This document shows, in pieces, positions 3,716-46,323 of a DNA stretch of 46,872 nucleotides. The translations under genes and the position numbers were made by a program. The notes under the pieces are model-generated. The model was not told the DNA's origin and ran no database searches. It saw only the letters and a program-made list of their open reading frames with translations. Positions within the stretch are counted from its first letter, which is position 1. Each line of letters opens with the position of its first letter. The DNA comes from a virus, in the IMG/VR virus record IMGVR_UViG_3300045988_064400, positions 1 to 46,872 of that record; one strand, 5' to 3'.

Positions 3716-4549
3716 CTAAAAATGATGTATTGATGGGTCGTTGTTTTTTACTTTTTCAAAAAACTCTTGTCTTTCTTTTTCTGCCTCTTCCATTTCTTCA
3801 TGTGTCCGCCAAGCCAATTCTTTTGAACATTTACCATTTCCATTATAGGAATTGTTTTTGTTTTGCAACCACTCCGGGTCTATATTCATGTACCCATTAT
3901 CGAGTGATAGCTGAATAGCATTTATCTGAGTTTTTGTATTTACTTTTGCCAGCTTCATTAAAATTGCATTTACTTTATCATCTGTAACCATTTTATGATT
4001 TTCTAAAAGATTTCTAAAAAATCTACTTAAAAGTTCTATAGATTCATCTTCTAAATCATACTCTAAACATTTCTTTTCTATAGATTCGATTTTAGTATCA
4101 ATTTTAGATTTCTTTTTAGAATTTTTCTTATCTATATTATCTTCTATATTTTTATTTCTATTGTTTATATCTATATTATTGTGTAAAGAATTTTGACATC
4201 CCCCTGTCAAATTTTTTGACATCCCCCTGTCAAATTTTTTGACATCCCCCTGTAAAGAATTTTGACATCCTGTCAAATTAACGCCATAAGAACAAAACTT
4301 CACGTTATTTTTAAATTCTTCGGTTTTTATTATTAAATCATTAGCAACTAACTTATTAAGCGTGGTCATTACTGTTTGTCTTGAGCATCCACACCATTCA
4401 GCTAAGTAATTAGCACTCCCAGTAAATTCACAACCATTAGTTTGAGAAAATCCATAAATAGTGGCATATATAATCAACGAATTTCCTTTTAGTCCTAATT
4501 CATTAACCATCCAACCTTGGATTGTTATATAATTTTCGTTTTTTACCAT
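3716..4549 (-). CDS. Replication initiator / replisome organizer (N-terminal wHTH), carrying internal iterons
   Basis: 277 aa. 'ANYLAEWCGCSRQTVMTTLNKLVANDLII' looks like a wHTH. Four 23-bp direct repeats lie inside the ORF. It is the first gene of the loader/helicase/primase operon. Confidence 0.65.
   Translation of the reverse strand: MVKNENYITIQGWMVNELGLKGNSLIIYATIYGFSQTNGCEFTGSANYLAEWCGCSRQTVMTTLNKLVANDLIIKTEEFKNNVKFCSYGVNLTGCQNSLQGDVKKFDRGMSKNLTGGCQNSLHNNIDINNRNKNIEDNIDKKNSKKKSKIDTKIESIEKKCLEYDLEDESIELLSRFFRNLLENHKMVTDDKVNAILMKLAKVNTKTQINAIQLSLDNGYMNIDPEWLQNKNNSYNGNGKCSKELAWRTHEEMEEAEKERQEFFEKVKNNDPSIHHF
4191..4277. repeat. Iterons: four tandem 23-bp repeats, each an inverted repeat TTGACA-N6-TGTCAA (candidate phage origin)
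   Basis: ttttgacatccccctgtcaaa starts at 4191 and 4214. A variant (…tgtaaag) starts at 4237. A copy lacking three Cs starts at 4260. Confidence 0.8.
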
Positions 4550-6053: not shown

Positions 6054-6336
6054 TCAAAATTTTAGTGCCACGTTGTCCCCATTGATAGGTTGCGTTAAAT
6101 TCTGCCATAATACCTCTATACTTTGAACGCAAATCAATCTGGAATTGATGCAATTCTTGTATCTGCTCCATTGTAAAGAGCATTGTATTTTTTCCATCAA
6201 TTTTGGGTTCCGGCAATTTCAATTCTTTTGGCTTTTCGAAATCTTCACTATTGTACCATTTGTACCAACGCTTCACTGTTTGCGTCGATACATCTAATAT
6301 TTGAGCCGTTCGGCTCGTTGTAAATAATTCGCTCAC
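6010..6336 (-). CDS. HTH DNA-binding protein (MerR/excisionase-type HTH)
   Basis: 'TTSRTAQILDVSTQTVKRWYKW'. I trimmed the start to the GTG at 6336, which follows gaaaggaggtga and removes the overlap with 6366..6668. Confidence 0.6.
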   Translation of the reverse strand: MSELFTTSRTAQILDVSTQTVKRWYKWYNSEDFEKPKELKLPEPKIDGKNTMLFTMEQIQELHQFQIDLRSKYRGIMAEFNATYQWGQRGTKILNVGKQYRKKEEKSE

Positions 6337-9216: not shown

Positions 9217-9552
9217 TCAAATGATATTTGGCTGTGTTATATTTTGAAGTGTTTCAAGATGTTTTTTGAATATTTCCTTTTCTTCTAAATTACACGTCAT
9301 ATATAATTCAGATAGCATTTTCCGAATGGTGGAAAGTAGAATTTCAAGGCTATCTTTTGTTCTATTTCTCATATAAGAAACAAACAAACTTTGAATATCT
9401 ATAATGGTTTCATCCACATTACTTTCTGGAACAAGGTCAATATTCATCTTATCTACAAGTGCCAAGATTAAGAATGCGTCTACATCAAAATGCCTCTTCA
9501 ATTCATTTTCCGCAAGTTCTTTGGCTACTGGAATACTTTCTTGAAATGTCAT
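9217..9552 (-). CDS. Hypothetical protein
   Basis: 111-aa ORF ending just before a terminator. Confidence 0.55.
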   Translation of the reverse strand: MTFQESIPVAKELAENELKRHFDVDAFLILALVDKMNIDLVPESNVDETIIDIQSLFVSYMRNRTKDSLEILLSTIRKMLSELYMTCNLEEKEIFKKHLETLQNITQPNII

Positions 9553-22760: not shown

Positions 22761-23636
22761 TTAGACTTCTGCGTGTGTTCCGTCATACCAGAAAATGGTA
22801 TCAGGAGTTACTGCTTTTGTTCCATAATAGAAGAACATTTCTACTGCTACAGCTTCACTCAACGGAATACGTTCAGCGGAATATGGTTTGGATGTGATTG
22901 GCTGTGCAATGGACTCATCCATCATAATCTCAAACTTAACTCCGGATGGCAGTCTGTTTGAATTATAGCATTTAACTCCATGATACATATTGAACTCTTC
23001 TGATGTTGTATCTACATTAGTATTCACTACTGTATCAAGATACATTCTCATTGCCGAGTAAGTATCCGGGTCAAAAGTGATAGAAAGCATTGAACGGTCT
23101 AATCCGTCAATGTAGTTATTCTTCAACTTCTCAAGCTGTAGAATTGCGGATTCAACAATATCCTTAATATCTGTAACAGCTTTTGCCGGTTTGAACTGTG
23201 TTCCTGAATTTTTACCTTCTGCAAAGAATTCGGTATCAAGTTCTGCTACCATTCGTTGTGCATGATTTGCGGAACGCTTAGCCACCAATCCGTCTACGCC
23301 AAGCAAGCGGATATCTTTCTCTTCAATCTCCTCTACAAACTCTCTGTCCACGTTAATAGGCACGGTAACGGTCTTTCCTTTTACTGCCGTTCCTTTAGCC
23401 GCTGTACGAGCAGTTCCATAAGGCTGTGAACTTGCATTCACAAATCGTTTAGCTTCTACTGTGCCGGCTGTTGGATCACCACTCAAATCTGTGTTCTTGA
23501 TTTTAAATGATACTGTGCCTTTCTGGACGTTCTCAATAACGCCATCATATGCTTCTTTCAAGAGCATCTTTCCGGATTCACTACCGTCAAGCAATACGTT
23601 CAAAGAATCAAGTCTTGTTGTTTCTGGTCTTGCCAT
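22761..23636 (-). CDS. Major capsid protein
   Basis: 291 aa, directly after the scaffold gene, RBS aaaggagag. Typical size and position. Confidence 0.75.
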   Translation of the reverse strand: MARPETTRLDSLNVLLDGSESGKMLLKEAYDGVIENVQKGTVSFKIKNTDLSGDPTAGTVEAKRFVNASSQPYGTARTAAKGTAVKGKTVTVPINVDREFVEEIEEKDIRLLGVDGLVAKRSANHAQRMVAELDTEFFAEGKNSGTQFKPAKAVTDIKDIVESAILQLEKLKNNYIDGLDRSMLSITFDPDTYSAMRMYLDTVVNTNVDTTSEEFNMYHGVKCYNSNRLPSGVKFEIMMDESIAQPITSKPYSAERIPLSEAVAVEMFFYYGTKAVTPDTIFWYDGTHAEV

Positions 23637-23653: not shown

Positions 23654-24295
23654 TTACCAAAATGTCACCGAAGGCTTCTCTGGATCACCTTTCGGCTGTG
23701 TTTCTGTTCCAGAGGATTTTCCACTAAACTGCGGTTTAGGTGGTTCATCCTCACCAGAATTTTCTGTATCCTCTTTTAGGAATGCATCAGCATCCGTCTT
23801 CTTATAAGATTCCAGGAAGTCGTCAAATCCTTGCAACTGCCCATCTTTCATTTTCATTTCTTCTTTCAAGGCATCTGCTATAAAAGCTTTCTTTGCTGAA
23901 TTAGAAGAAAATTTCAACTCTGCAACTTTTTCTTTGATTGCAAATTCATAAGCCTGATTACTCAATTGCTTCTCGTAATTGGACTTTTCTGTGTTGTAGG
24001 TGTCCTGCAATTCTGAAAGTTCTTTCTGCAAGTCAGCTAACTTCGTAGTATCTGTCCCTGCGTCTTTCAACTTTCCCTGAAGGTCTTTAATATCAGCATC
24101 TCTTTGCTCGATGTCTGTGTCATACTTAGTCTTATAAGCATCTCGCTCACCTTCAGCCTTTTCCAACTTGTTTTGGATTTTAACTACCTCTGATATAGTC
24201 TTATAATTTTCATTTAAGGCTTTATCAAAGTCTTCCTTCTTATCTTCCGGAACTGTAAGTTCGAAAGATTTAAGAATCTCATAGATATTCTTCAT
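23654..24295 (-). CDS. Scaffolding protein (GP20-like coiled coil)
   Basis: 213 aa, highly charged K/E/D coiled coil, upstream of the capsid gene. Confidence 0.7.
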   Translation of the reverse strand: MKNIYEILKSFELTVPEDKKEDFDKALNENYKTISEVVKIQNKLEKAEGERDAYKTKYDTDIEQRDADIKDLQGKLKDAGTDTTKLADLQKELSELQDTYNTEKSNYEKQLSNQAYEFAIKEKVAELKFSSNSAKKAFIADALKEEMKMKDGQLQGFDDFLESYKKTDADAFLKEDTENSGEDEPPKPQFSGKSSGTETQPKGDPEKPSVTFW

Positions 24296-24369
24296 GTTTT
24301 TGCACTCCTTTATAATCTAAAATGATGTTTTTAACCCGCTTTCCGGGTTTTGGATTATCTACATTTTTT

Positions 24370-24398
24370 ATTATACACAACTTATCAACATTTGTAAA
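24370..24398 (-). promoter_or_regulatory. Promoter TTTACA-N17-TATAAT reading into the scaffold/capsid genes, embedded in the DnaA-box cluster
   Basis: The reverse complement of 24370-24398 reads tttaca-aatgttgataagttgtg-tataat. The -10 and the spacer overlap two DnaA-box-like 9-mers. Confidence 0.55.
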
Positions 24399-24532
24399 GT
24401 GTTTTTGTGGATAATTCTGTGTATAACTTGTTGATAAATCGAAGTTATACACAAGCAAAATGTTAAAATTGTTGATAAATCATAAGCAAAACAAAAGTTA
24501 TCCACAATTTAATGTGGATAACTTGTTGATAA
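24371..24532. promoter_or_regulatory. Cluster of ten DnaA-box-like 9-mers (three perfect TTATCCACA/TGTGGATAA)
   Basis: Perfect boxes at 24406-24414, 24498-24506 and 24513-24521. One-mismatch boxes at 24371-79, 24382-90, 24418-26, 24429-37, 24445-53, 24470-78 and 24524-32. Confidence 0.8.
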
Positions 24533-25636
24533 CTATAAATCATAACCTGGAACCTTTGCTCTGTTCCATTGCCTACGAAGATTTGCTTGTTTTGATGTGT
24601 ATCCATAAGACTGCTTCAATCTCTTTAACTGTTTTTTCTGTTCTTCCACGTCTTTTCCTGCTTCTTGTAATGCTATAATCTGTTCTTGTTTGTATCTCAT
24701 TTTGGTTTCAAGATTTCTCATCACTTGACTTGCTTCATACCTTGTTATTTCTTTATCGCCTATTTTTATTTTTTCGTTTGAATAGTCTTTTATGTTTTGC
24801 AATTCTTTATCATCATATGTTGGAGGTGATACACCAAGAATTATATAAGATATTCCATGTTGGCAATTGCAAGTTCCAAAATGTCTTTTTAATCTTGCAT
24901 TTATTGAATTGTATTTGGAAAGACTATATTGTCTTCCTTGATACGGTAAATGGTCTTCCGCACATAATCCATGAGCATCTAGTTCTATGCCATCTGCACC
25001 GTATTGTTTTCCTGCTTCTAATCGCACCCCGTAGTTGACTTGACGAACTCCTTCTAAAATGTTCATCCTTGCCGCACTATCTAATCTTCTTGTTCGTCCG
25101 CTTGAATATTGAACCCTTGCTCCTTGTGTTGCTTTATCGAGAATAATCCTTTCTAAAGCATCTTGATATCCGTCCATTCCGGTTGCTACTGTGTCTATCG
25201 CTAAATCAATAGCATCTTTATAATCCTTGGCAATGCTAGTTGTATTTGCCATGTTTGCAAATGTGCCAGCAGTTAAATTTCGGACAGAACTAATATAATT
25301 CTGTATTGCGGTATTTTTAGAAAAAACAGGTTGAGTAATTCCCTTATGCTTATATAAATAAGCAACATCTTTGTATATTTCACCGGCACTTTTATCATAC
25401 AGTTTATAAATATCTTGCAGGGCTAATCCGGATTGCTTTGAAAGGTATAGGTTTATTTCTTCAATGTTATTACCCATCTTAGCCATCTGTTCTAACCTGT
25501 GCATATTGTCTTTATCTAGTTTACCAATCTCTTTTATCTGTTCTGCCATTTTGGAAAGATAAAAGAGATTGACTTTTTCGAATCTATCAGCAATTCTAAA
25601 AGCAATGTTCGTTAATTCATCCTTTGATAAAGCCAC
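24533..25636 (-). CDS. Minor capsid / head morphogenesis protein (SPP1 gp7 / minor-capsid-2-like)
   Basis: 367 aa, immediately after the portal gene. 'GLCAEDHLPYQGRQYS' resembles the family motif, from memory. Confidence 0.65.
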   Translation of the reverse strand: MALSKDELTNIAFRIADRFEKVNLFYLSKMAEQIKEIGKLDKDNMHRLEQMAKMGNNIEEINLYLSKQSGLALQDIYKLYDKSAGEIYKDVAYLYKHKGITQPVFSKNTAIQNYISSVRNLTAGTFANMANTTSIAKDYKDAIDLAIDTVATGMDGYQDALERIILDKATQGARVQYSSGRTRRLDSAARMNILEGVRQVNYGVRLEAGKQYGADGIELDAHGLCAEDHLPYQGRQYSLSKYNSINARLKRHFGTCNCQHGISYIILGVSPPTYDDKELQNIKDYSNEKIKIGDKEITRYEASQVMRNLETKMRYKQEQIIALQEAGKDVEEQKKQLKRLKQSYGYTSKQANLRRQWNRAKVPGYDL

Positions 25637-27247: not shown

Positions 27248-28123
27248 TTATTCAGTTACCGTTGTATCTGTGTCTGTTTTAGGTGTAAGTGCCTCTAATG
27301 CTTCAATTCTTTTCAACAAAGATGCTACATCATCTGTAATTTTTATCACTTTTTCGTTTCCATCAATCGTGGTAGTAATAGGAGTTGCAAGTTCATAATA
27401 AAGATATTTACCTTGCATTGCTTCCTTAAATTGTTCAGCGGAACGTGTCGTGTTGAAACCTATTGCTCCGTCTCCACTACTAGCTATATAGTTGGTATCT
27501 ACTTTGCCTTGGCTAGTTAACTTATTCCAAGATACTGTCAAATAATCTCTACAATATATATTCGAAGCTGTTTCTGTATCTAAATGAACTTTAATTTTAT
27601 CTTGTATGGCATAGGTGTAAACACCATAAGCCACCTGTTCTCCATAGTCTAAACTTCCTAAATCAACTCTACCAACTTTCTGTATAAACTGATTTTCATT
27701 TACTTCATTCTGTATAGGACATTCTTTAGGTACACTCCATCCCAGCATTTTAATATCCATCATTTCTGAGGATTGTTCTGAAAGGCTTTCTTTTATTTCT
27801 GTATCATCATATACTGTATCAGTAAATACTGCATTTTCTGGTACATCACTTTTTACTGTATGACTTCCTAATTGTTCTGATAATTCCGTTAAAGAAGTAG
27901 ATTGTTTTTCTAACTTTTCTCCTACTGTTTTTGCTTCTGCTGGAACTCCTTCTTCTGTCAATGTTGGGTCTGTCAGTTTCAAATCTACTGTCTTTAGATT
28001 TCCTACCAAAGGAACATTGTTTATAGACGGTTTATTCTGCAAGTCATTATAGTTACCTGTTCCTTCTCCGCCTCCACTTGTTTCAATCTTTCTAAATCCA
28101 GGTATTACTACTCTTTGTGCCAT
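27248..28123 (-). CDS. Fibre-like protein (tail-fibre N-terminal motif) in the TerL-portal insertion
   Basis: Trimmed to the ATG at 28123 (aaggag RBS; avoids a 100-nt overlap). 'YNDLQNKPSINNVPLVGNLKTVDL' resembles the N-terminal repeat of phage fibres. Confidence 0.55.
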   Translation of the reverse strand: MAQRVVIPGFRKIETSGGGEGTGNYNDLQNKPSINNVPLVGNLKTVDLKLTDPTLTEEGVPAEAKTVGEKLEKQSTSLTELSEQLGSHTVKSDVPENAVFTDTVYDDTEIKESLSEQSSEMMDIKMLGWSVPKECPIQNEVNENQFIQKVGRVDLGSLDYGEQVAYGVYTYAIQDKIKVHLDTETASNIYCRDYLTVSWNKLTSQGKVDTNYIASSGDGAIGFNTTRSAEQFKEAMQGKYLYYELATPITTTIDGNEKVIKITDDVASLLKRIEALEALTPKTDTDTTVTE

Positions 28124-28140
28124 TTTTAATCTCCTTTCAA

Positions 28141-28461
28141 TTAGTTCAAAATATTTAATTCTTCGTATGTTTTGTATATTTTTGGAAATTGTATCGCTAT
28201 CCAATCTACCATCGTTTCGTTGTGTCCCCATTGTGTGCAATTTTCAAAATTTGATTGCAAACCGCTTTCCGAAAGGTAAGCGTGTATAATTTCATGCCTT
28301 AACTGTTTCTTCATTAAATATTCAAAATTTCCAACATTGTTATAGTTGTCTTTTCTTATAACGATTGTCTTACTTGTATTGTCACACCACCCATCTGTAT
28401 TTGAATTTTTCAAGGTTTTTCGTTTAATCTTATAAGTAGTACCCAATATATTTGCTTTCAT
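28141..28461 (-). CDS. Small HExxH metallopeptidase-like protein
   Basis: 106 aa with 'LRHEIIHAYL' (HExxH) followed by 'HNET'. Confidence 0.55.
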   Translation of the reverse strand: MKANILGTTYKIKRKTLKNSNTDGWCDNTSKTIVIRKDNYNNVGNFEYLMKKQLRHEIIHAYLSESGLQSNFENCTQWGHNETMVDWIAIQFPKIYKTYEELNILN

Positions 28462-28535
28462 GATTTCGCCTCCTCCTTGACTTTTTAGTCTTTCTAAATC
28501 ACGATATTATTACTGTTGTTTTTTTCTTAATTAGT

Positions 28536-29399
28536 CTACCAACTATTTTCTTCATTGCTTCCTGTATACTCCTCGCCAGTATTAGCAAGCAGAAACCACG
28601 ATTGTTCACTATCTTTCTTTGATCTAATAATCATATGCTTCGTACCATTTAGTTTAATAAACCGTTGCGTCAACAATGCTGTTGGCATTGAACATATCAT
28701 CCACATATTTTCTACTACGTGAGGAACAAAATCAGAACCGCATAACGAAAAATCTCTTAGTACAAGAATTCCATTGTCCCTAGTTTTTCTTGATGGTGTA
28801 TTAGGAGAAGCCATTACCGCATCTTGAAAATATTCATATAATGTTTCTGTAAGTGCTGTACTTACTGTATCTATACCTCCGTGAAAATTTAAAGCACCCA
28901 AAACACCGTCTTCATTTCCTGACGCAATTCCGGCGGAATACATATCATAACGTATTTGTCCAAATTCTAATGCTGCATCGTTTGGGGGAATAATAACCAT
29001 ACCGTTATTAAATCCATCTGACATTATCGAACTGTGAACATATGCAACAAGTAAATTATTATCGAAAATAAATATTTGCAAGTCAAAAACATTATTATCA
29101 CCGTACCAATCAACCATATTTGTTCCTATATAAACTCGCATCTCAGACAACACATAATCATCAGTGCGTTGCCAAGGTATTAAATGTACGAAAACTCTTC
29201 CTTTATGACAAATTTCCCAGTAATGAAATTGTTTGGAAGCACCTTTATAGATTCCAACTTCAACTGTAAATCCATCTTCTGCGGATAATCCAAAAATTTC
29301 TAACCATACATCCTTTTGTCCTTCTGGATCATTTTTTATCAAGGTCAATTGTTCTGTGTGTGTTTTTAATTTTCCAAGGTCAACATTTATTTCTTTCAT
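28536..29399 (-). CDS. Hypothetical protein (TerL-portal insertion)
   Basis: 287-aa ORF. I recognised no motif. Confidence 0.55.
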   Translation of the reverse strand: MKEINVDLGKLKTHTEQLTLIKNDPEGQKDVWLEIFGLSAEDGFTVEVGIYKGASKQFHYWEICHKGRVFVHLIPWQRTDDYVLSEMRVYIGTNMVDWYGDNNVFDLQIFIFDNNLLVAYVHSSIMSDGFNNGMVIIPPNDAALEFGQIRYDMYSAGIASGNEDGVLGALNFHGGIDTVSTALTETLYEYFQDAVMASPNTPSRKTRDNGILVLRDFSLCGSDFVPHVVENMWMICSMPTALLTQRFIKLNGTKHMIIRSKKDSEQSWFLLANTGEEYTGSNEENSW

Positions 29400-29403
29400 A
29401 TAA

Positions 29404-30108
29404 TCAACTCCAATCTACACTTGTGTAAGTTTTCAAAGTTTCTTTGTTCTTCAAACACTTTATTCTAATTAAATCTATAACATCTCCCGATGCATTTACT
29501 TTATTATTCATATAGTATAATACAGAAATCGGACATATTCCAATTTCTCTTATTGTACTATAGGGCAAATTTGTATCATCTTCACCGACTGATATTTCAG
29601 CTATTGTACCACAAGATTGAGTAGGTTCTGGTGTGTTCTGTGTGCTAAAAACTACTTTTCCATCAGTAATCTTATAAAATCCTTTGGTTATTTCTCCTCC
29701 AATTTTCATGCTGAAAGATATTCTGCCGTCAATTGTGTTCAGTGTCTTTCCTGATATTGTGCATATGCCACGCCAAGCACGTTTTTCGGAACCTCCAAAT
29801 GCCAAGATAAAAGGCACTTTACAATCTTCTCCTATAGGAAGATTATATAATTGGTCAAACATAAAATCATACATAGGATTTCCTTCGTATAATGCTATCT
29901 CCTGTGGAAGTTCTGGCTTATTAGATGTTACAACTGTTATTGGATTTTCGAAACAGATATAATGTATATCTTCTTCCGTCTCGTTTATTGTTAATTCAAA
30001 AATCGTCGAATAATCAATTCTTGTCCAATTTGAATTTTCAAATGTTTTGTCTTTATTTATATCCAAAAAAGGAATGAATTGGTCTTTTGTCAATCTAGTA
30101 ACACTCAT
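29404..30108 (-). CDS. Major-tail-protein paralog with a ~75-aa C-terminal extension
   Basis: Trimmed to the ATG at 30108 (ggaggtg RBS). By manual alignment, 93 of ~150 positions are identical to 20496..20978 (e.g. 'SNKPELPQEIA.YEGNP.YDF'). Confidence 0.7.
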   Translation of the reverse strand: MSVTRLTKDQFIPFLDINKDKTFENSNWTRIDYSTIFELTINETEEDIHYICFENPITVVTSNKPELPQEIALYEGNPMYDFMFDQLYNLPIGEDCKVPFILAFGGSEKRAWRGICTISGKTLNTIDGRISFSMKIGGEITKGFYKITDGKVVFSTQNTPEPTQSCGTIAEISVGEDDTNLPYSTIREIGICPISVLYYMNNKVNASGDVIDLIRIKCLKNKETLKTYTSVDWS

Positions 30109-30135
30109 TAGGCATTTCACCTCCTCTGTCTTTTT

Positions 30136-30164
30136 ATAATACAACATTGCAAATAAAATTACAA
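30136..30164 (-). promoter_or_regulatory. Possible promoter (TTGTAA-N17-TATTAT) at the head of the TerL-portal insertion
   Basis: The reverse complement reads ttgtaa-ttttatttgcaatgttg-tattat. AT-rich context, so this could be a chance match. Confidence 0.3.
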
Positions 30165-32188: not shown

Positions 32189-32509
32189 TTATTTATCTTT
32201 TATATGTTGCAGATACATTTCGTGTTGTTCTTGTTTTGTTAAATTAGCATACTTATCTTCATGTACTGAATATCTATATTCTATATGCCCGGCAAGTAAT
32301 ATTATTAAAACAATAATTATTCCTAATGATATATTAAGCAATTTTTCTTTTTTATGTTTTTCATTATTATTTACTTTCCATAATTTTTTATGATTATTTT
32401 GAGATTTCCATTTTTTCCAACACGTCTCCCCCATTCCTATTTCTATTGCTTTCGGGTTTCTTAATTTTCGTCCACATCTTTTACAAGTTGCCTGCTCTAA
32501 TTCATTCAT
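32189..32509 (-). CDS. Zn-ribbon (CxxCGR...GxGxxC) protein with a C-terminal TM helix
   Basis: 106 aa. 'CKRCGRKLRNPKAIEIGMGETCWKKW' is DUF6011-like, from memory. TM segment 'LLNISLGIIIVLIILLAGHI'. Confidence 0.55.
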   Translation of the reverse strand: MNELEQATCKRCGRKLRNPKAIEIGMGETCWKKWKSQNNHKKLWKVNNNEKHKKEKLLNISLGIIIVLIILLAGHIEYRYSVHEDKYANLTKQEQHEMYLQHIKDK

Positions 32510-32510
32510 A

Positions 32511-32855
32511 TTATTTTTTACCTCCTAATGATAATTGTAATTTGATGCATTCGTTTAATATCTTCACATCATCTTTATTTATTGTTCCACTATAATTTTT
32601 TAGATATTTTTTATCGACTGTCAACATCTGCTCCGGCAGACAATAATTTAATCTATTATTTATTTGAAAACATAATCTACCATGCATTGGAAGATAATCT
32701 TTCTTTGTTGTTAATGGAACAACTTGAACTACATCACAATATAGATTATTCTTATCGTTACTAACAACAACACAAGGTCTAAATCCTCGTTGATAATGTT
32801 TTCCGTCAGGAAATAACATATCAAGGTCTAACCAATATACATCTCCGCGTCTCAT
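32511..32855 (-). CDS. mazF: MazF/PemK-family endoribonuclease toxin homolog
   Basis: 114 aa. 'RRGDVYWLDL...GFRPCVVVSNDKNN...VVPLTT...LPEQMLTVDKKYL' aligns by eye along the full length of B. subtilis EndoA/MazF. Confidence 0.8.
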   Translation of the reverse strand: MRRGDVYWLDLDMLFPDGKHYQRGFRPCVVVSNDKNNLYCDVVQVVPLTTKKDYLPMHGRLCFQINNRLNYCLPEQMLTVDKKYLKNYSGTINKDDVKILNECIKLQLSLGGKK

Positions 32856-33376
32856 ATTGCTTCCTCTACTTTCTTTTTTGCCCTGCTTAATAGTCTGGAT
32901 ACTCCAGCTTGAGATATTCCTATTATGCTAGCTATCTCAGCTTGATTCATTCCTTGATAGCGCAACTTACAAACAGTCAATTCTCTTTCATCTAATATAT
33001 CTTCTAAATCAAATAATATTAAACTATCTTCTAAATATTCTGTTCCAAGCATATCATCAAGGCACAATGAATCTCCATCTCTTTCATACACCTCCTGGTC
33101 AAGGCTTATAGTATATGAAGATATTTTTCTTTTATCACATTGGGCTAATCTAAAATATGTTTTCACAACATTAGTAAGAACGGCACTAGCATATGTATTA
33201 AATTTCACTCCACTGTCTTTATTATAAGACAATGCCGCTCTACATAATCCCAAAGCTAACTCTCCATACTCTTCATTTGGATTATACCCCCTACCGATAT
33301 ATTTTGAACCAATATACCAAATAAGTCCTTCATTATCCTCAACTAACTTTCTTTGTTCATCGTTTAATTTTTTCAT
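32852..33376 (-). CDS. Sigma-70 family RNA polymerase sigma factor
   Basis: 174 aa. Region 2 'EEYGELALGLCRAALSYNKDSGVKFNTYASAVLTN'; region 4 'LRYQGMNQAEIASIIGISQAGVSRLLSRAKKKV'. Its stop overlaps the mazF start (ATGA). Confidence 0.8.
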   Translation of the reverse strand: MKKLNDEQRKLVEDNEGLIWYIGSKYIGRGYNPNEEYGELALGLCRAALSYNKDSGVKFNTYASAVLTNVVKTYFRLAQCDKRKISSYTISLDQEVYERDGDSLCLDDMLGTEYLEDSLILFDLEDILDERELTVCKLRYQGMNQAEIASIIGISQAGVSRLLSRAKKKVEEAI

Positions 33377-34139: not shown

Positions 34140-35090
34140 TTAAGCCAGACATTTCAGAATTAAATAATCCAATGATATATCTTCATCAATCTTTCCCATC
34201 TTAATTCCGGATTCTATTTCTTGACAAAGTAACATATTTCTTTTTACTTCTTCAATATTGTAACCGCCAACATTCTTAGTGCATCCCCATAACTCTCCTT
34301 TTGTCATTCCAGTTCTTTCCATCGCTCCTTGTTTATTTTTACCAAGTCCTTGATATGCAAGTAAATTTCTAAATCCATTGTAAAGTATAGAAGCTATCAT
34401 CATTGCAGGTTCACCTTTTCGTTTTGCTTCATCTAGTTTCTGTATAGCTTTTTCTGGATATCCACCTAAAACTGCGTTAGTTAATTCAAAAGTGATATCT
34501 CCAATTTCTTTATGAAAGATCCCTTGTTTATCTAACTCTTCAAAGCATTTATCTTCATTCTTTGATTTAATAAACTTCATATACTGTTTGACTTTATCAA
34601 TTTCAAACAATATTCTACCATAATCATTATTGCAATAGCCAATCAACTTGCTTATATTTTCGTCACTTAAATCGGGTAAATCGCATTGAATGTATTGTTG
34701 TAACACTTCACCGCTTAAATGCGAAAATTGAACGCAATTTTGTTTATTCTTCTTGTAGAAAGACTCCTTCCTGCTGAGAGTATTATATCTTAGAATTAAA
34801 TAATCTTTTGAATTATTGAATTGTTTTTTAATAATCTCCCATGCATCTGAATTTTTAGAAAATGTAAAATCATCTATCACTGTGAATATTCTACATCTTT
34901 TATCAAGGGTTTTTCTTCTTGTTATATTCAACACAGACTGAACACTCTCACAGGGAATATAAGTATGCTTAATGGAATTTCGTATTTGCTGAATATACTC
35001 GTCAATGATTTTTTGTTCTTCACCAAAAAATATCAAATAATGTGGAATATTAAATGATGATACTTTTTCCATCAAATCACGCAGTTCCAT
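34140..35090 (-). CDS. holA: DNA polymerase III delta subunit (HolA)-like clamp-loader component
   Basis: About 316 aa from the ATG at 35090 (gggaggg RBS; the track start is 35108). 'YLIFFGEEQKIIDEYIQQI' resembles the HolA N-terminus. It lies in an operon with DnaX- and HolB-like genes. Confidence 0.6.
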   Translation of the reverse strand: MELRDLMEKVSSFNIPHYLIFFGEEQKIIDEYIQQIRNSIKHTYIPCESVQSVLNITRRKTLDKRCRIFTVIDDFTFSKNSDAWEIIKKQFNNSKDYLILRYNTLSRKESFYKKNKQNCVQFSHLSGEVLQQYIQCDLPDLSDENISKLIGYCNNDYGRILFEIDKVKQYMKFIKSKNEDKCFEELDKQGIFHKEIGDITFELTNAVLGGYPEKAIQKLDEAKRKGEPAMMIASILYNGFRNLLAYQGLGKNKQGAMERTGMTKGELWGCTKNVGGYNIEEVKRNMLLCQEIESGIKMGKIDEDISLDYLILKCLA

Positions 35091-35240
35091 TTTTATCCCT
35101 CCCATCATCTATCAGCTTTATAGCAGATAAATCAATACCACAATTATTAAGTTTACCTATTACCACATCCCAATCTTTGCACCATTTAATAAACTCGTCT
35201 CTTTTCCATCCAGATGGAATCACTCTTTCTTCATAAGGCT

Positions 35241-35588
35241 TCAAAATAAAGCACCTCCTAATTTTTTAATTTTTTGCTTTTCTATTTTTGATTTGTTTAA
35301 GTAATGACAAGCTATATTCATTAAATATTCCTTATCATGCTCATTTAATCTATCATATAGATCAAAACCTGTTGTGCCGTCAAAATCGTACATCGCATAT
35401 CCATATTGTGTTTTTTGGATATCTATATCCTTTTGTAATTCAACTAATTGGTAGCTTAATTCGTCATATTCTTTATCAGATAATTTTGGAGAATCTAACT
35501 CATAATATGCTATTGCGTTTAATATGATTTTCCTTTGGAGAAAATTAACACATTCCAATTTAGTCCATCTTCTCGGAAATTTCTGCAT
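35241..35588 (-). CDS. Stand-alone protein resembling the NAD-dependent DNA ligase (LigA) N-terminal Ia domain
   Basis: 115 aa. 'ILNAIAYYELDSPKLSDKEYDELSYQLVELQK' matches the LigA pattern 'H..YY..D.P.ISD.EYD.L...L..LE' by eye. Confidence 0.4.
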   Translation of the reverse strand: MQKFPRRWTKLECVNFLQRKIILNAIAYYELDSPKLSDKEYDELSYQLVELQKDIDIQKTQYGYAMYDFDGTTGFDLYDRLNEHDKEYLMNIACHYLNKSKIEKQKIKKLGGALF

Positions 35589-35745
35589 TATTTTTCTCCT
35601 TCATTTCTGCATTATTTTTCTCCTTCATTTCCGCAATATAGATTTTTGTAGCACAATCTAATAGCTTTTCGCTTAAGCTTACAGTCTCCGTAAATCTCTT
35701 ATTACAAGACCTTAGTAACATTACCATAATTTCATCAAATTCCAT
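35560..35745 (-). CDS. Hypothetical small protein whose C-terminus is encoded by the tandem duplication
   Basis: 61 aa ending 'AEMKEKNNAEMKEKNNAEISEKMD'. Confidence 0.45.
   Translation of the reverse strand: MEFDEIMVMLLRSCNKRFTETVSLSEKLLDCATKIYIAEMKEKNNAEMKEKNNAEISEKMD
35579..35631. repeat. 24-bp tandem duplication (2.2 copies) spanning the RBS and start codon of 35241..35588
   Basis: atttctgcattatttttctccttc occurs at 35579-35602 and 35603-35626, plus a partial copy. On the minus strand each unit reads GAAGGAGAAAAATAATGCAGAAAT. Confidence 0.9.
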
Positions 35746-36526
35746 TTTTTAATCCCTCCATAATCTTAATAAGCATTGATTCAATGCTAGCTTTTTTATT
35801 GATACTGCTTCTTTGCAACTCTTGTCTGCATGAACAGATATCTTTTATGATACATAAAGAAAGAGAACAGAATCCATAAGAATCATATAATTTCTGTTCA
35901 AATATCCTCATAAAAATCAAACAATCTACTTTATCTTCGTCAGTCTTTTTAGCCTTTAACTGTGTAGTTGCTTTCAACAATTTAGTACCACTTCTAGTCC
36001 TAAATGCTTCAAGCACATCATCCACACATTTCTCTGCTTGAAGAACCTTGTCCTTTGGTGTATTTAGGAGACCTATATTGGTGCAGTATTTTAATAGAGT
36101 TTCGTCCATTGTTACTTTTTGTAAATCTTGAATAGTATAAGGCTCCATTTTAAGAATAGTTCCTCTACTTCTAATCGTGCCTAACATATTATCTACATTC
36201 TGGACCGTCATTATAAAATAAGCGTTATTCGGCGGTTCTTCCACAACTTTAAGAAGTGCGTTTTTTGCTTCATTTTTCATATCATCCGCATTTCTAAAAA
36301 TATAGCAAGTAGGTTCTGTAATAGTATAAGCATTTTCTATTGTTTCCCGGACTTCTGCAATACTGTTTCCCATGATTATTCCTTTTGCGTTTATCATTTT
36401 TATAATGACTTTTGCAAGGGTTAATCTTCCACTACCAATATCTCCTGAAATTATAATGAATCTAGGTACTGACTTATTGCACCGCCACTGAATAAGAGTA
36501 TCTATATTATTTTTCTGTCCAATCAT
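35735..36526 (-). CDS. holB: DNA polymerase III delta-prime (HolB)-like AAA+ clamp-loader subunit
   Basis: Trimmed to the ATG at 36526 (ggaggtg RBS). 'IIISGDIGSGRLTLA', 'NALLKVVEEPPNNAYFIM', 'TIRSRG'. Confidence 0.7.
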   Translation of the reverse strand: MIGQKNNIDTLIQWRCNKSVPRFIIISGDIGSGRLTLAKVIIKMINAKGIIMGNSIAEVRETIENAYTITEPTCYIFRNADDMKNEAKNALLKVVEEPPNNAYFIMTVQNVDNMLGTIRSRGTILKMEPYTIQDLQKVTMDETLLKYCTNIGLLNTPKDKVLQAEKCVDDVLEAFRTRSGTKLLKATTQLKAKKTDEDKVDCLIFMRIFEQKLYDSYGFCSLSLCIIKDICSCRQELQRSSINKKASIESMLIKIMEGLKNGI

Positions 36527-36722
36527 ATAGCACCTCCAGTTCGTAGCAATATAACTGATGAATAACACTACGATTATACTTGCTTCTAGGTAGTTTTGGA
36601 TTATATTTTTCCAAAGGGCAGCAATATGGAACTGGGTGCTCTTCCAAAACCACTACTAACTCGCCTTTTGAAAAGTTATCATCCGTATCAGTCAACACTT
36701 TGCAAACTTTTCCTTTCAACAT
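36507..36722 (-). CDS. Hypothetical small protein
   Basis: 71-aa ORF between the dnaX-like and holB-like genes. Confidence 0.45.
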   Translation of the reverse strand: MLKGKVCKVLTDTDDNFSKGELVVVLEEHPVPYCCPLEKYNPKLPRSKYNRSVIHQLYCYELEVLYDWTEK

Positions 36723-36723
36723 A

Positions 36724-37824
36724 CTAATCCTCCTTTCCGCAATAAATCAAAATAGATAATTCAATCAATGTCTTTGGTTCGTTTTCCCACTTAATCTGAC
36801 TATTCAACATAAGTACAAAATCCATTACATTATAAACTTCTGTGGACAAAGATTTAAACTCTGATAGCTTATCAATATTTTCTTGTGTACTTGGTATATT
36901 GATATAATCAGTTGACTCATAAATTAGATATTTTTCAACTTCTAAAATGAATTTGGCAAAGTCTTTCATAAACTGTTTTACATCTTTACCGCAGTTATAA
37001 ACATTTTCAATTGTTGTTATGCTCATTTTTCCTTTGTTGCACAACCTATCTAAAAAATCAAAGAATGTGCTATAATCTTCACTTCCTATTGTTTTCAATA
37101 CATTTTCCAACGTCACATCATGAGATAATGAAAGACATTTATCAAGAAGTGTAATAGCATCACGCATTCCTCCAGATGAGACCTTTGCTATATATTCCAA
37201 AGCATCTTCATCACAGTCTATACAGTCAATATCTTCGTGCTTAGCCCATTCTATATCATTGATGGCATCCTGTGAACCTCCGGCAGCTTCTATCATTTCT
37301 CTATTTTCCTCTGCAATTATACCATTTAATCTTTTCACAATTCCCTCATTACTTATCTTTTGGAAATTGTATCTTTGAACTCTTGATAAAATCGTATTAG
37401 GAATTTTCTGTGGATCCGTTGTGCAAAAAATGAAAATCGTAAATTTTGGGGGTTCTTCAAGTGTCTTTAATAATGCCTGCCATGCTCCATTTGATAACGA
37501 ATGACATTCATCCACAATGAATATCTTATATTCTGCATCAAGCGGTTTTCTTTTAGCATCTTCAATAATCTGTCTAATATTATCCACCCCACTATTACTT
37601 GCGGCGTCTACTTCAATAGGATTTCCTTTTCCAACATTTATCATATTCGCAAAAATTCTTGCTGATGTTGTCTTACCTGTTCCAGCTGGACCGGTAAATA
37701 AGTAACCATGTTGAAAAGTCTTTGTTTTAACCTGATTTTCTAAAATTTCTTTTATTGCTGACTGCTCAGTTAACGAATAAAAATAAGTTGGTCTATATTT
37801 TACTGCTAATGATTGGTTTGCCAT
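36724..37824 (-). CDS. dnaX: DNA polymerase III gamma/tau (DnaX)-like clamp-loader ATPase
   Basis: 366 aa. 'KYRPTYF', Walker A 'GPAGTGKTT', 'IFIVDECHSLS', 'ALLKTLEEPP', 'TILSRVQRYNF'. Confidence 0.85.
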   Translation of the reverse strand: MANQSLAVKYRPTYFYSLTEQSAIKEILENQVKTKTFQHGYLFTGPAGTGKTTSARIFANMINVGKGNPIEVDAASNSGVDNIRQIIEDAKRKPLDAEYKIFIVDECHSLSNGAWQALLKTLEEPPKFTIFIFCTTDPQKIPNTILSRVQRYNFQKISNEGIVKRLNGIIAEENREMIEAAGGSQDAINDIEWAKHEDIDCIDCDEDALEYIAKVSSGGMRDAITLLDKCLSLSHDVTLENVLKTIGSEDYSTFFDFLDRLCNKGKMSITTIENVYNCGKDVKQFMKDFAKFILEVEKYLIYESTDYINIPSTQENIDKLSEFKSLSTEVYNVMDFVLMLNSQIKWENEPKTLIELSILIYCGKED

Positions 37825-39271: not shown

Positions 39272-39541
39272 TCATTTACTCACCGCTTCTACTTGGTCTT
39301 GTGAGAAGAATGCTGACTCTTTCAAGAAATATCTTCCATTATCAACTTCTTCCTTTTCCCCATCTTCGTTTTCTACTTTTTTGATAGACCGTTTCCACAC
39401 GGAAATTCTATGCTTTGATTTTTCTCCTTTCTTTACTTGATACCCTAGTTTCTTCCATTGTGCATATGTATGTAGCACAATTTTATTTGGGTCTAACTGG
39501 TTCATTCGCATATATCCTAATATAATAGCGGTGTTTGTCAT
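39272..39541 (-). CDS. ArdC-N-terminal-like ssDNA-binding domain protein
   Basis: 89 aa. 'HTYAQWKKLGYQVKKGEKSKHRISVWK' resembles the ArdC_N/DUF1738 core, from memory. Confidence 0.45.
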   Translation of the reverse strand: MTNTAIILGYMRMNQLDPNKIVLHTYAQWKKLGYQVKKGEKSKHRISVWKRSIKKVENEDGEKEEVDNGRYFLKESAFFSQDQVEAVSK

Positions 39542-40217: not shown

Positions 40218-40724
40218 CTATATCCATCGGTTATCGTATGTGTACCTTTTACCGGAATGCTTTGTTGTTTTTGTCTTAACTAATTTATTTGCATCTTTTT
40301 TGGTTATTTGAACTTCGTGCCTTCCACTAGGTTTTTTATAAATAATAGCGTCATAAGAACTTTTGGATAAAGCCGAAGCGTTCTCCTTATCCCTTGTCTG
40401 CCATTTCTTAGAAGTCATAGGACCTTTAGGATAGGACTTGCCTGGGTGTAACTTTTCCCATGCATTTCTAAGCATTTCTCCATCTGTTGAACCATTTACA
40501 ACCAATGGATTATTTAGCTTGATGTGATATGTGTCAATATTTTTATTCGATTCCTTTCCATAATTACTCGCCTCCCCGAACGATGCGCTTAAAAAAATCA
40601 TTTTATTAGGTGCTGATAAATCTCCAGACCTATGAACCTCGTAAGTTCCCGGAACACCGTAATTAGAGGAACTGCTTGTAATAAGTCCAGATTGTTTACC
40701 ACTAAAAGAACTTCTTCCGCCCAT
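40218..40724 (-). CDS. Hypothetical protein with an 'MGGRSS' N-terminus (very tentative RES/ART-like core)
   Basis: Trimmed to the ATG at 40724 (agggag RBS). 'HRSG...IFLSASFGEAS...KKPSGRHEVQI' loosely resembles the R/E/S spacing of RES toxins. Confidence 0.55.
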   Translation of the reverse strand: MGGRSSFSGKQSGLITSSSSNYGVPGTYEVHRSGDLSAPNKMIFLSASFGEASNYGKESNKNIDTYHIKLNNPLVVNGSTDGEMLRNAWEKLHPGKSYPKGPMTSKKWQTRDKENASALSKSSYDAIIYKKPSGRHEVQITKKDANKLVKTKTTKHSGKRYTYDNRWI

Positions 40725-40748
40725 AATAATCAACTCCCTTCACTCGTA

Positions 40749-44676: not shown

Positions 44677-45123
44677 TCAACTCCTTCCATAATGTCTCCT
44701 TCCATATTCAGCTATCAATAATGCCTCTGCCATTCCGTCATGATCTTTTCTACATCTTTCTGTTGCTTTTAAATTAACACCCGGAAATAATCTCTTGCAT
44801 ACTTCGATAGATGTATTTTTATCAGATGTGCAAGAAAATTCTTTCTTCCACTTCTGTGGTGTGACAAGTTCATAAGGAATGCCATATGCTTTTAATACTC
44901 CTTGAATAAAACCAAAATTCATACCGAAGTTAAATGTACTTGACACGCCCTGATTAGGCATTGCGTGAACGTGTTCTAAAGTACATTTCATATCAGAACT
45001 ACAATTTTTTATCAGTCGAATTAAGGAATCCTCTGAAAATGGTAATAATTGTATAATCTCATTAAATTCATTTATAAATGCTATTCCACCATTTTTTCCT
45101 GGATCAATTCCTATATATATCAT
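44677..45123 (-). CDS. ruvC: RuvC-like Holliday junction resolvase
   Basis: 'MIYIGIDPGKNGGIAFI', 'EHVHAM', 'DHDGMAEALLIAEYG' give a RuvC-type acidic tetrad layout. Start trimmed to the ATG at 45123. Confidence 0.75.
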   Translation of the reverse strand: MIYIGIDPGKNGGIAFINEFNEIIQLLPFSEDSLIRLIKNCSSDMKCTLEHVHAMPNQGVSSTFNFGMNFGFIQGVLKAYGIPYELVTPQKWKKEFSCTSDKNTSIEVCKRLFPGVNLKATERCRKDHDGMAEALLIAEYGRRHYGRS

Positions 45124-45124
45124 T

Positions 45125-45520
45125 CTATCCAACCTCGTCTTTCCATTTAATATTTATAATATCGTCACACTTTGATATTACCCAATTTAATTCTTCATCA
45201 CTGCCTTCATAATCTTCATCATATATACCACATTCACAATAGTAATTGTCTACCTTATCTTCAGTTCCCCACAATGCTGGGCAATACTTACACAAGTATT
45301 TACCCGAAGGTACAACATTCTTATTGTTCTTACAACATTGCTGTCTTGCGTACTCACACAATGCACAATGATTAAACAAATTTAATTTATTTTTCTCACA
45401 GAATCTTCTTTTTGAAATACCCCTAGCCAAACCGTCATAATTGTCCTTTTGTTTATTCACATACTCCCACATTTCACGATGGATACTCTTACATTTTTCC
45501 AAATCTAATTCCTTTTCCAT
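45125..45520 (-). CDS. Cys-rich hypothetical protein
   Basis: 'CALCEYARQQCC...CKYCPALW...YCECG'. Start trimmed to the ATG at 45520. Confidence 0.55.
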   Translation of the reverse strand: MEKELDLEKCKSIHREMWEYVNKQKDNYDGLARGISKRRFCEKNKLNLFNHCALCEYARQQCCKNNKNVVPSGKYLCKYCPALWGTEDKVDNYYCECGIYDEDYEGSDEELNWVISKCDDIINIKWKDEVG

Positions 45521-45525
45521 GTTAA

Positions 45526-46323
45526 TCACCCAACCTTCTTACAAATCCCTTTATACTTACAGAATCTACAGTTATTTGAATTTTCCGTTTTAGGAGGGGC
45601 TATCATTCTTTCTACATATCCCTCACACTCTGATATATAATTGCACAAGCAATTCTTCATATCCTGCGTAACTTCAAATACTTCAGGTACTTCAAGTGTG
45701 CATATATCCCTGTTTTCATACATTACAAATGCCTTGTCTAAATCCAATACAGTGCAATAACAAATTACTTGATTATGGTGCTGTGCCAAACAATGATTAT
45801 CTAACTGGTTATACTTGAATGATACTACATTCTTGAACTCCCAAAGAAAATCCTCATTTGTAGATATTCTTCTTATAATTCCATCACAACGAAAAGATAA
45901 GTTTAATGCAGTATCTATAAGATGTGTTTCTGCTCCTTGTGTTCCTTTTACTATCAAAGATTTACATTTGCCGAATTTCTGTTTTTCCTTTACATATTCA
46001 GCAACATCTAAATACTTCCAATCATACCCCATTTTCTGCATATTCAATAAAGCATTTTGTAATGCCTCATGCCTTGCTGTTCCTGTATCTGCCATTCCTG
46101 TTGAATTATATTCTACTGTTTCCGGGTCTTGTGGTGCTTTCATTCTTGTAAAATACATATTTCTCATACAATGCAAAGAAGAAGGCTTATAATAATTACT
46201 TCCTTTTCTTCTTCCTTCTTGTTCTATTCTTTCAATGCAACTCATAACATCTGCCAAAAACTTTTTATTTGCAGGAAGTTGTGGCTGATTGTTATTGATT
46301 AAATTTAATAATCTTCTACTCAT
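45526..46323 (-). CDS. Cas4/RecB-like PD-(D/E)XK exonuclease with a 4-Cys cluster
   Basis: 265 aa. N-terminal 'PSSLHCMRNMYF', 'CDGII...LWEFKN' (D...ExK), C-terminal 'CRFCKYKGIC' (CX2CX5C). Confidence 0.7.
   Translation of the reverse strand: MSRRLLNLINNNQPQLPANKKFLADVMSCIERIEQEGRRKGSNYYKPSSLHCMRNMYFTRMKAPQDPETVEYNSTGMADTGTARHEALQNALLNMQKMGYDWKYLDVAEYVKEKQKFGKCKSLIVKGTQGAETHLIDTALNLSFRCDGIIRRISTNEDFLWEFKNVVSFKYNQLDNHCLAQHHNQVICYCTVLDLDKAFVMYENRDICTLEVPEVFEVTQDMKNCLCNYISECEGYVERMIAPPKTENSNNCRFCKYKGICKKVG

Follow-up and report, generated by a model that had tools for sequence, protein, structure and literature searches.

Known DnaA-box clusters and the present locus

In E. coli, the chromosomal datA locus of about five DnaA boxes needs IHF and promotes ATP hydrolysis, with no promoter being gated by it, while DnaA boxes are also contained in the P1 oriR. 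In B. subtilis, DnaA binds cooperatively and in an ATP-dependent manner at box clusters near sigma-A promoters (PMC4447404), and T5-like phages carry eight paired DnaA boxes, including the variants TTATCAACA and TTATTAACA, in their injection-stop region (iss; bioRxiv 10.1101/866236). Here we describe an array of DnaA-type boxes in a viral genome, the window under analysis being the whole 46,872-nt (46.9 kb) stretch of the IMG/VR record IMGVR_UViG_3300045988_064400, to whose positions all coordinates refer. The array is located in the gap between the minor capsid protein gene and the scaffolding protein gene, where it overlaps the promoter of the scaffold and capsid genes, and we give an even chance to the reading that this gap is a composite transcription-control region, whose operator array would place the promoter under the control of host DnaA. 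That DnaA acts at box clusters is already known; an array located on a phage scaffold/capsid promoter appears to be new, and a literature search brought up no paper that places DnaA boxes at the scaffold or capsid promoter of a phage.

The array resembles the sites of dnaA autoregulation and of the DnaA regulon in B. subtilis, in which clusters of the TTATNCACA type, including TTATCAACA and TTATTAACA, overlap or flank sigma-A promoters, but it is viral, stands at structural genes, is denser (162 bp containing 10 boxes that reach 10 bits or more) and is strictly phased. With the iss of T5 it shares its position in a non-coding phage region, its pairs of consensus and variant boxes 2–3 bp apart and its inverted repeats, and T5 carries AAGTTATCCACAGAC-TTATCAACA, which is close to the units of two relatives of the present virus, L100 and L101 (L-numbers such as L006 or L097 are labels of individual relatives' loci). 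The two differ in that T5 has a host from the Gammaproteobacteria and its boxes are found in the terminal repeat, where they are proposed to halt DNA entry and overlap no capsid promoter. As a separate observation, T5 (L320, record positions 6121–6202 and 9449–9518) has the same flanks and the same 12-bp pair period as some of the arrays, with aagTTATCCACAgacTTATCAACA in T5 against aagTTATCCACAgacTTATCCACA in L100/L101; these shared flanks may reflect a flank preference of DnaA or chance.

In phages phi29 and Nf, host Spo0A sites control phage promoters (PMC2731898), and these are likewise lytic Firmicute phages carrying sites for a host master regulator on their own promoters, with host physiology gating development; they differ in the site itself (the 0A box TGTCGAA), in the promoters concerned, which are early ones, and in the outcome, which is spore entrapment. 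When the sequence is read directly, the boxes of the gap do not match the Spo0A motif TGTCGAA, as they read TGT(G/T)(G/T)ATAA and none contains the CGAA core. Late transcription coupled to replication has been described for the T4 sliding clamp and for Mu C with the beta clamp (PMC12867686), where structural or late expression is also tied to replication via a replication protein, but there the clamp serves as an activator, whereas titration of, or occlusion by, an initiator is proposed here. The SPP1 and P1 oriR regions resemble the array in being repeat clusters away from the initiator gene, but the repeats of the SPP1 oriR are the initiator's own boxes, whereas the gap array includes neither iterons nor an unwinding element. 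With datA and other titration loci the array shares the character of a DnaA-box cluster outside an origin, the copy number of which affects free DnaA.

Little is known of the timing of structural genes in tailed phages that infect Gram-positive gut bacteria. Should host DnaA gate the capsid promoter, capsid output would be coupled to the replication state with no dedicated phage regulator, and these phages would join the T5 group as a second, independent lineage in which ordered DnaA-box arrays are kept for a use other than replication. The element is compact (180 bp) and could readily be moved into reporter systems.

Composition of the array

An earlier note on this DNA had placed ten DnaA-type 9-mers in the gap. 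All ten were recovered with the same coordinates, sequences and strands, an eleventh being added at 24355–24363, and its descriptions of the 237-nt gap, of two near-identical double units and of a promoter pointing into the scaffold and capsid genes were likewise borne out; one correction is that the minus strand carries every gene of the window, including the head operon. The elements of the region are listed below in the order of transcription, with distances counted from the start of the -35 hexamer; box scores (in bits) were obtained with the matrix for B. subtilis DnaA.

24533–25636, minus strand: minor capsid protein 2 gene (Phage_min_cap2; PF06152, E=1.9e-45)
24296–24532: gap between the minor capsid and scaffold genes, 237 nt, 27% GC
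24524–24532, minus strand: box 1, TTATCAACA, 11.3 bits, at -134, pointing at the promoter on the transcribed strand
24485–24524, minus strand: intrinsic terminator of the upstream operon, 12-bp stem AAGTTATCCACA/TGTGGATAACTT with a 6-nt loop, then TTTTGTTTTGCT
24513–24521, minus strand: box 2, TTATCCACA, perfect, 13.5 bits, in the 5' arm of the terminator hairpin
24498–24506, plus strand: box 3, TTATCCACA, perfect, in the opposite orientation, in the 3' arm of the terminator hairpin
24470–24478, minus strand: box 4, TTATCAACA
24445–24453, plus strand: box 5, TTATACACA, in the opposite orientation
24429–24437, minus strand: box 6, TTATCAACA, opening the head-to-tail triplet of boxes 6–8 (at -39, -28 and -16)
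24418–24426, minus strand: box 7, TTATACACA, 11 bp after box 6
24406–24414, minus strand: box 8, TTATCCACA, perfect, 12 bp after box 7 and ending 7 nt before the -35 hexamer
24393–24398, minus strand: -35 hexamer TTTACA, with 0 of 6 positions variable in 11 close-relative haplotypes
24382–24390, plus strand: box 9, TTATCAACA (transcribed-strand reading TGTTGATAA), in the promoter spacer, starting 2 nt after the -35 hexamer (+8)
24371–24379, plus strand: box 10, TTATACACA (transcribed-strand reading TGTGTATAA), overlapping the -10 hexamer (+19)
24370–24375, minus strand: -10 hexamer TATAAT, after a 17-nt spacer
24355–24363, plus strand: box 11, TTATCTACA, a weak site of 7.2 bits where transcription probably starts
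24333–24349, minus strand: leader hairpin AACCCG-GAAAG-CGGGTT in the 5' untranslated region of the scaffold mRNA
24293–24311, minus strand: ribosome-binding site AAAGGAG and scaffold ATG, preceded by a conserved ATTTTAG
23654–24295, minus strand: scaffolding protein gene (Phage_scaffold; PF06810, E=3.3e-22), the first gene behind the gap promoter
22761–23636, minus strand: probable major capsid protein gene, second in the unit and identified solely from its place in the gene order, without a match in Pfam

Three of the boxes are perfect TTATCCACA copies and three are of the R2 type TTATACACA; tested against TTWTNCACA, six match exactly and five with one mismatch. The two 20-bp double-box units, 24418–24437 (TGTGTATAACTTGTTGATAA) and 24513–24532 (TGTGGATAACTTGTTGATAA), differ at a single base. 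A DnaA-box cluster has been defined as at least three boxes with a mean spacing below 100 bp (quoted in PMC7561715); the gap holds eleven within 178 bp.

The comparison with shuffled sequences suggested in the earlier note gave a clear enrichment. Across the whole window 42 boxes with 0–1 mismatches were counted, against 18.6±4.3 in shuffles, and the skeleton TTATNNACA, present in 11 copies per 178 bp in the gap, never exceeded 3 per 200 bp in Markov shuffles of the window. Dinucleotide-preserving shuffles of the gap itself yielded 0.12±0.35 boxes (maximum 3 in 5000) against the 11 observed, and AT-richness therefore does not explain the cluster, which is the only one of its kind in the window. 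Two perfect boxes at 44337 and 44385 were rejected as a coding coincidence: TGTGGATAA encodes N-V-D-N and neither copy is conserved across 39 relatives, the downstream one being altered at synonymous sites and the upstream one occurring only in a subset with a Cys-rich insert. Three small open reading frames (ORFs) in and around the gap (24279–24458, 24371–24505 and 24460–24678) are composed of the repeats themselves and were treated as spurious.

Promoter, terminator and leader

The promoter TTTACA-N17-TATAAT (24398–24370, minus strand) matches TTGACA/TATAAT at 11 of 12 positions, and boxes are located both in its spacer and over its -10. A pattern search found it in 31 of 33 non-redundant relatives, the -35 hexamer being retained in all lineages (as TTGTAA in L100–L102). 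Whatever their box type, almost all array-bearing lineages have a box in the spacer, starting 1–2 nt past the -35, and no other box position is as constant; a second box over the -10 is frequent, and the +8 and +19 sites of the window are shared by most lineages. Among the three roles that the earlier note had offered for the array (a second origin, a switch for capsid expression and a DnaA sink), a DnaA-gated switch at the capsid promoter fits best, because the box inside the promoter spacer is near-invariant and is followed by a transcribed leader and a ribosome-binding site.

Three features of the region go beyond the earlier note: the role of boxes 2 and 3 as a terminator, the weakness of box 11 together with its likeness to an element of the early promoters, and a covarying hairpin in the leader. 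The terminator, identified by a terminator scan and a minimum-free-energy fold, is placed directly past the stop codon of the minor capsid gene, with the inverted perfect pair formed by boxes 2 and 3 as its arms. The hairpin is retained with compensatory changes in L006, L007, L011, L026 and L098/L099, these being double changes in L006 and between L098 and L099; in L007 one arm is no longer a box, with the pairing intact, and in L029 an unrelated GC-rich hairpin takes the place of the box terminator.

In the leader hairpin, five of the six pairs show compensatory double changes among 18 diverse relatives, while the loop GAAA(G/A) is invariant. Its position is shared by L070–L102, L011 and L029, with a stem of 5–6 bp and conserved flanks AATCC and TATAAAA..ATTTTAG, and because it covaries, the DNA downstream of the promoter can be regarded as read in the form of RNA. 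No match to Rfam was obtained for the gap or for the leader hairpin. In form it resembles a translational operator or the lambda boxB, which has a 5-bp stem and a GAAAA loop. Scaffold autoregulation is known for P22, and one idea, by analogy, is that the hairpin could take part in autoregulation of the scaffold; an N-like antiterminator is a second idea.

A separate set of five near-identical cassettes of about 50 nt, (A)AAAAxCAC-TTGACA-tttttctttttatgtat-TACAAT-atatttgTAAATAAgaaa, with an N17 spacer, is present on the minus strand with -35 starts at 68, 6744, 9162, 34081 and 39784. They head early and replication gene blocks and look like a distinct class of early promoters. All five are followed by TGTAAATAA, a TGTA(A/G)ATAA element whose distance from the -10 equals that of box 11; since box 11 matches this element, it may not be a real DnaA box.

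Conservation among related phages

Regions upstream of the scaffold gene were taken from 79 viral contigs, conservation in relatives being a check that the earlier note had called for. An array of 5–14 boxes is present at this site in 31 of the 33 relatives with at least 47% scaffold identity and is missing from relatives at 42% identity or less. Across related phage loci that add up to 2.77 Mb and take in most of these genomes, clusters of TTWTNNACA occur in the gap array only, apart from unrelated initiator iterons. Boxes persist even though the spacers between them cannot be aligned across lineages. Their number reaches 13–14 in some lineages and is 5–7 in L011 and L078, and their arrangement varies as well. 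In L078–L085 and L094 the promoter-proximal boxes all have one orientation and form a continuous phased run through the promoter; L094 contains recent tandem 19-mers; in L094/L095 a run of 7–9 weaker boxes has a perfect box at either end, a layout that recalls the logic of oriC, with strong anchors and weak fillers; and L100–L102, with a genomic GC content of about 35%, have six perfect TTATCCACA boxes.

The clade is very abundant in human-gut metagenomes, with thousands of near-identical terminase sequences and contigs of up to about 57 kb. No nucleotide match to the window was found in the INPHARED phage collection. The nearest cultured phages are the Leicestervirus phages of C. difficile, whose portal proteins are 33–35% identical and whose equivalent gap contains no boxes. 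As regards the host, exact-protein look-ups and a TerL search returned metagenomes only, and the host search gave no plasmid matches.

A promoter located near the right terminal repeat of Clostridium phage CpV1, a podovirus of C. perfringens (L319; NC_048629, 16513–16558), aligns with the scaffold promoter for 46 nt at 85% identity. This look-alike, AAAACACTTTACAAATGTTATAAACTTTAGTATAAT, is the only DNA match and contains no intact box; the resemblance may hint at a Clostridium-like style of host promoter. Phages of the lineage whose boxes are all TTATTAACA have a longer minor capsid gene, of 747 aa, and a 68-aa ORF (MKIIAQMGNS...) transcribed divergently from the array (L013 5264–5470 and L087 152–358, on the minus strand of these loci); neither the window nor most lineages contain the divergent ORF.

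The protein that reads the boxes

The classical consensus TTWTNCACA requires C at position 6, and both the TTATCAACA boxes and the arrays made up entirely of TTATTAACA (L087–L092) at first seemed to argue against DnaA; the B. subtilis matrix, on the other hand, tolerates A at this position. That matrix was obtained by Smith and Grossman from 150 boxes bound in vitro by B. subtilis DnaA (PMC4447404, table S3) and contains C 78, A 16, T 43 and G 13 at position 5 and C 100, A 45, T 2 and G 3 at position 6; the list of bound boxes includes TTATCAACA and TTATTAACA several times each (PMC4447404). Putative DnaA boxes of several mycoplasmas also read TTATTAACA (PMC2751442). On the B. subtilis matrix the variants score 13.5 (TTATCCACA), 11.3 (TTATCAACA), 10.2 (TTATACACA), 9.5 (TTATTAACA), 7.2 (TTATCTACA) and 3.9 bits (TTATATACA), and ten of the eleven boxes of the window lie between 10.2 and 13.5 bits. 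In the boxes TTAT..ACA is constrained and positions 5–6 vary within the letters that the matrix tolerates.

A skeleton scan that left positions 5–6 free collected 181 boxes from 21 representative arrays. At position 5 these have C99/T49/A29/G4, which is the rank order of the matrix (C78/T43/A16/G13), and position 6 is A or C in 97% of them, as compared with T19/A16/C12/G6 for the same skeleton elsewhere in the window. Spacing is also ordered: neighbours in the same orientation are separated by 11–12 bp (82 cases) or 19–21 bp (45 cases), a phasing expected for oriented monomers that oligomerise.

Constraint is also seen in 11 distinct haplotypes of near-identical phages. Among them 5 of the 77 skeleton sites are variable, as are 15 of the 22 sites at positions 5–6, 11 of the 67 in the inter-box spacers, 0 of the 6 in the -35 hexamer and 4 of the 65 in the leader; positions 5–6 differ from the spacers at p = 1e-5 and from the skeleton at p = 8e-9. 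The skeleton of the array is under purifying selection, and because of this pattern the binder can be taken to read positions 1–4 and 7–9 while tolerating positions 5–6, as DnaA does. The turnover at positions 5–6 against a frozen skeleton also provides a natural series of affinity variants.

Given the scores, the agreement of the free positions with the matrix, the helical phasing and the conservation throughout the clade, the repeats of the gap are best read as DnaA boxes, in agreement with the earlier note; their anatomy fits a Firmicute DnaA, and DnaA is, in our judgement, fairly probably the protein that binds the array. Scans of about 60 ORFs of the window against Pfam, PHROGs and NCBIfam revealed no Bac_DnaA_C domain and no phage DnaA-like DNA-binding domain, the only DnaA-related match being the AAA+ fold of a DnaC/IstB-like loader.

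Several observations weigh against DnaA as the binder or against DnaA control of the promoter. At position 6 of the 181 boxes A (114) prevails over C (61), whereas C is the commoner in the B. subtilis matrix, and a formal test rejects agreement with that matrix. A 5' flank AAG or TAG is conserved in 64% of the boxes; it is outside the classical DnaA box and could indicate another protein. Some lineages are uniform for weak variants, such as L087–L092 with TTATTAACA throughout, and the palindromes of L093 (TTATATACA) reach only 3.9 bits on the B. subtilis matrix. L097 retains the promoter and the leader with no box at all, and the array is therefore dispensable in at least one lineage. The terS promoter (32141–32113), which is the only other TTTACA-N17-TATAAT site of the window and has identical hexamers, has no boxes, so that DnaA control would not time the whole of the late region. 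The searches for a host returned only metagenome contigs and one 7-kb contig of a metagenome-assembled genome labelled 'uncultured Clostridia', and the sign of the regulation is deduced from box position only.

An alternative that we consider unlikely retains the same operator array and promoter but assigns them to a phage protein or another host protein recognising (A/T)AG-TTATNNACA, for example a protein of the winged-helix or response-regulator type that binds direct repeats every 11 bp; the resemblance to DnaA boxes would then be convergent. The conserved flank and the excess of A at position 6 would agree with such a binder, and candidates may be found among the uncharacterised helix-turn-helix proteins of the phage (3342–3701, 6010–6384 and 11867–12067), its sigma factor and the small divergent ORF beside the array in L013/L087, although the last does not occur in the window or in the majority of lineages. 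Box types peculiar to a lineage (all TA in L087–L092, all CC in L100–L102, AT palindromes in L093) would also be expected from a binder that co-evolves with its sites, but this argument was set aside: since positions 5–6 are hypervariable (15 of 22) even among near-identical phages, the box type does not track a co-evolving binder and lineage-specific types require no co-evolving phage protein. Further points against this alternative are that the permitted letters agree with the experimental DnaA matrix, that L100–L102 keep six perfect TTATCCACA boxes at about 35% GC, and that the genomes, as far as the loci cover them, contain no second operator, which is usually needed for the autoregulation of a phage repressor.

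Proposed mode of action

A promoter at 11/12 of the consensus needs no activator, and a protein bound within the spacer or over the -10 normally acts as a repressor. For the gap we infer DnaA to be the binder, its binding to be repressive and titration to bring relief. In this scheme, the inverted pair of boxes 2 and 3 would, as a terminator, end the terS-to-minor-capsid transcript, and the near-consensus promoter of the sigma-A type would restart transcription for the highly expressed scaffold and capsid genes. An oligomer of ATP-DnaA would probably nucleate cooperatively at the perfect boxes and spread over the phased weaker TTATCAACA and TTATACACA boxes; DnaA over the spacer and the -10 would then occlude the promoter, keeping capsid synthesis off on a single incoming genome. 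As the phage replicates, the arrays could come to outnumber the DnaA pool, or infection could alter DnaA activity, and the promoter would open, tying capsid and scaffold output to the genome copy number or to the replication state of the host.

More tentative is the specific form in which DnaA acts as a titratable repressor that counts phage genomes, a lone incoming genome being fully occupied and silent for scaffold and capsid, and an excess of arrays opening the capsid promoter in proportion to copy number and starving the host oriC; we consider this possible, with the balance of probability clearly against it. If true, such a genome-counting switch would be a replication-coupled late switch that needs no dedicated protein and is common to a very abundant clade of human-gut Firmicute phages, and the affinity of the array would be tuned through the rapid C/A/T turnover at positions 5–6.

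Other functions considered

The effect of a DnaA sink on host initiation could be a by-product of the promoter control proposed above or a second function of the array. That the array is chiefly a datA-like sink, in which hundreds of arrays stop host initiation and free polymerase and clamp, the overlap with the promoter being secondary, is in our view improbable. The ten boxes of at least 10 bits, and the 13–14 boxes of some lineages, would suit a sink. The same can be said of the replication genes, since a phage that encodes its own helicase (DnaB), primase (DnaG), DnaC-like loader and three-subunit clamp loader would compete for the host polymerase. A sink, however, could sit anywhere, yet the array is always fused to one promoter with the spacer box fixed, and L011 and L078 manage with 5–7 boxes and L097 with none; moreover, the roles as a sink and at the promoter are not mutually exclusive.

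The earlier note had also proposed a second, DnaA-dependent origin of the oriC type, a suggestion that the anatomy of the gap contradicts, and its further statement that the phage has an iteron origin inside its initiator gene was upheld:

4100–4277: origin-like region of the phage, 3.5 copies of the 23-nt iteron TTTTGACATCCCCCTGTCAAATT beside a very AT-rich stretch, inside the initiator gene

The iterons occupy 4191–4270 within an HTH_36/DnaD_N initiator gene, downstream of which the genes for a DnaC-like loader, DnaB and DnaG are found, and the region at 4.1–4.3 kb, having the expected anatomy, is on sequence grounds the probable origin of the phage itself. In the gap no AT-rich unwinding element is present (the maximum AT content of 30-nt windows is 0.83, none reaching 0.9), and the only run of at least 12 A/T nucleotides in the region, of 13 nt, is in the promoter. 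DnaA-trio repeats (runs of at least 3) are absent from both strands of 24200–24650, and no initiator iterons occur in the array, TTGACATCCCCCTGTCAAA with up to 3 mismatches being found only at 4193–4257; an SPP1-like second copy of the iterons in the window was thereby ruled out. Cumulative GC skew is monotonic with no change at the gap, a signal dominated by transcription bias with all genes on one strand. The array is not an oriC-like origin.

For a second origin in the late region, comparable to the SPP1 or P1 oriR, one could still cite the dense cluster, its boxes phased head-to-tail as in oriC, and the weak DnaD_N similarity of the initiator. In Firmicutes DnaA recruits DnaD. We nonetheless consider such an origin highly improbable, as no unwinding element and no DnaA-trio-like run is present within 200 nt, the array adjoins a promoter, an RNA leader that covaries and a ribosome-binding site, and the initiator iterons are confined to 4191–4270, beside a true AT-rich stretch. 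Equally implausible is the reading of the repeats as RNA or DNA structure (stacked hairpins acting as a terminator or insulator) or as remains of repeat expansion at a module junction rather than protein sites, since, although the gap transcript folds far better than shuffles (z = -5.2), boxes 2 and 3 do form a terminator, boxes 5 and 7 can also pair and L094 has its recent tandem 19-mers, the single-orientation runs of L078–L085 and L094 make mutual pairing impossible, the constraint falls on the 7 skeleton bases and not on pairing partners, and boxes inside and downstream of the promoter are outside the reach of any argument from read-through structure.

Gene setting and further observations

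The minor capsid gene is the last of the terS-to-minor-capsid transcription unit, its stop codon abutting box 1, and it is preceded on the minus strand by the portal gene, a variable cassette, TerL and TerS. The portal gene was assigned by homology and by PF05133 on the identical protein of relatives, and annotated phages of C. difficile show the same succession of scaffold and major capsid genes. Between TerL and the portal gene (27248–30147) is a cassette that has no family matches and varies in size between otherwise near-identical relatives, the neighbouring product, encoded upstream of the portal gene, measuring 65–439 aa across contigs (L016–L025); it looks like a hypervariable slot for morons or accessory genes.

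Just upstream of the terS promoter, the gene order is a truncated sporulation-type sigma factor (32852–33376, minus strand; best NCBIfam matches SigF/G/B/E/K), then 32511–32855 and then 32189–32509, the last two (minus strand) encoding a MazF/PemK toxin homologue and a DUF6011 protein.

Replication functions are encoded at 34140–37824, 1291–2577, 89–1105 and 2705–3367 and comprise a clamp loader of three subunits (delta, delta-prime and gamma/tau-like) besides DnaB, DnaG and the DnaC/IstB-like loader; the scanned ORFs of the window showed neither a DNA polymerase nor a sliding clamp. At 46.9 kb the window may be shorter than the contigs of relatives, which measure 50–57 kb. Accessory genes of the early region (39272–39541, 40218–40733, 45526–46323 and 44677–45132) encode an ArdC-N-like antirestriction domain, an ADP-ribosyltransferase (ART-PolyVal, a call below the Pfam cut-off), a Cas4-like exonuclease and a RuvC-like resolvase.

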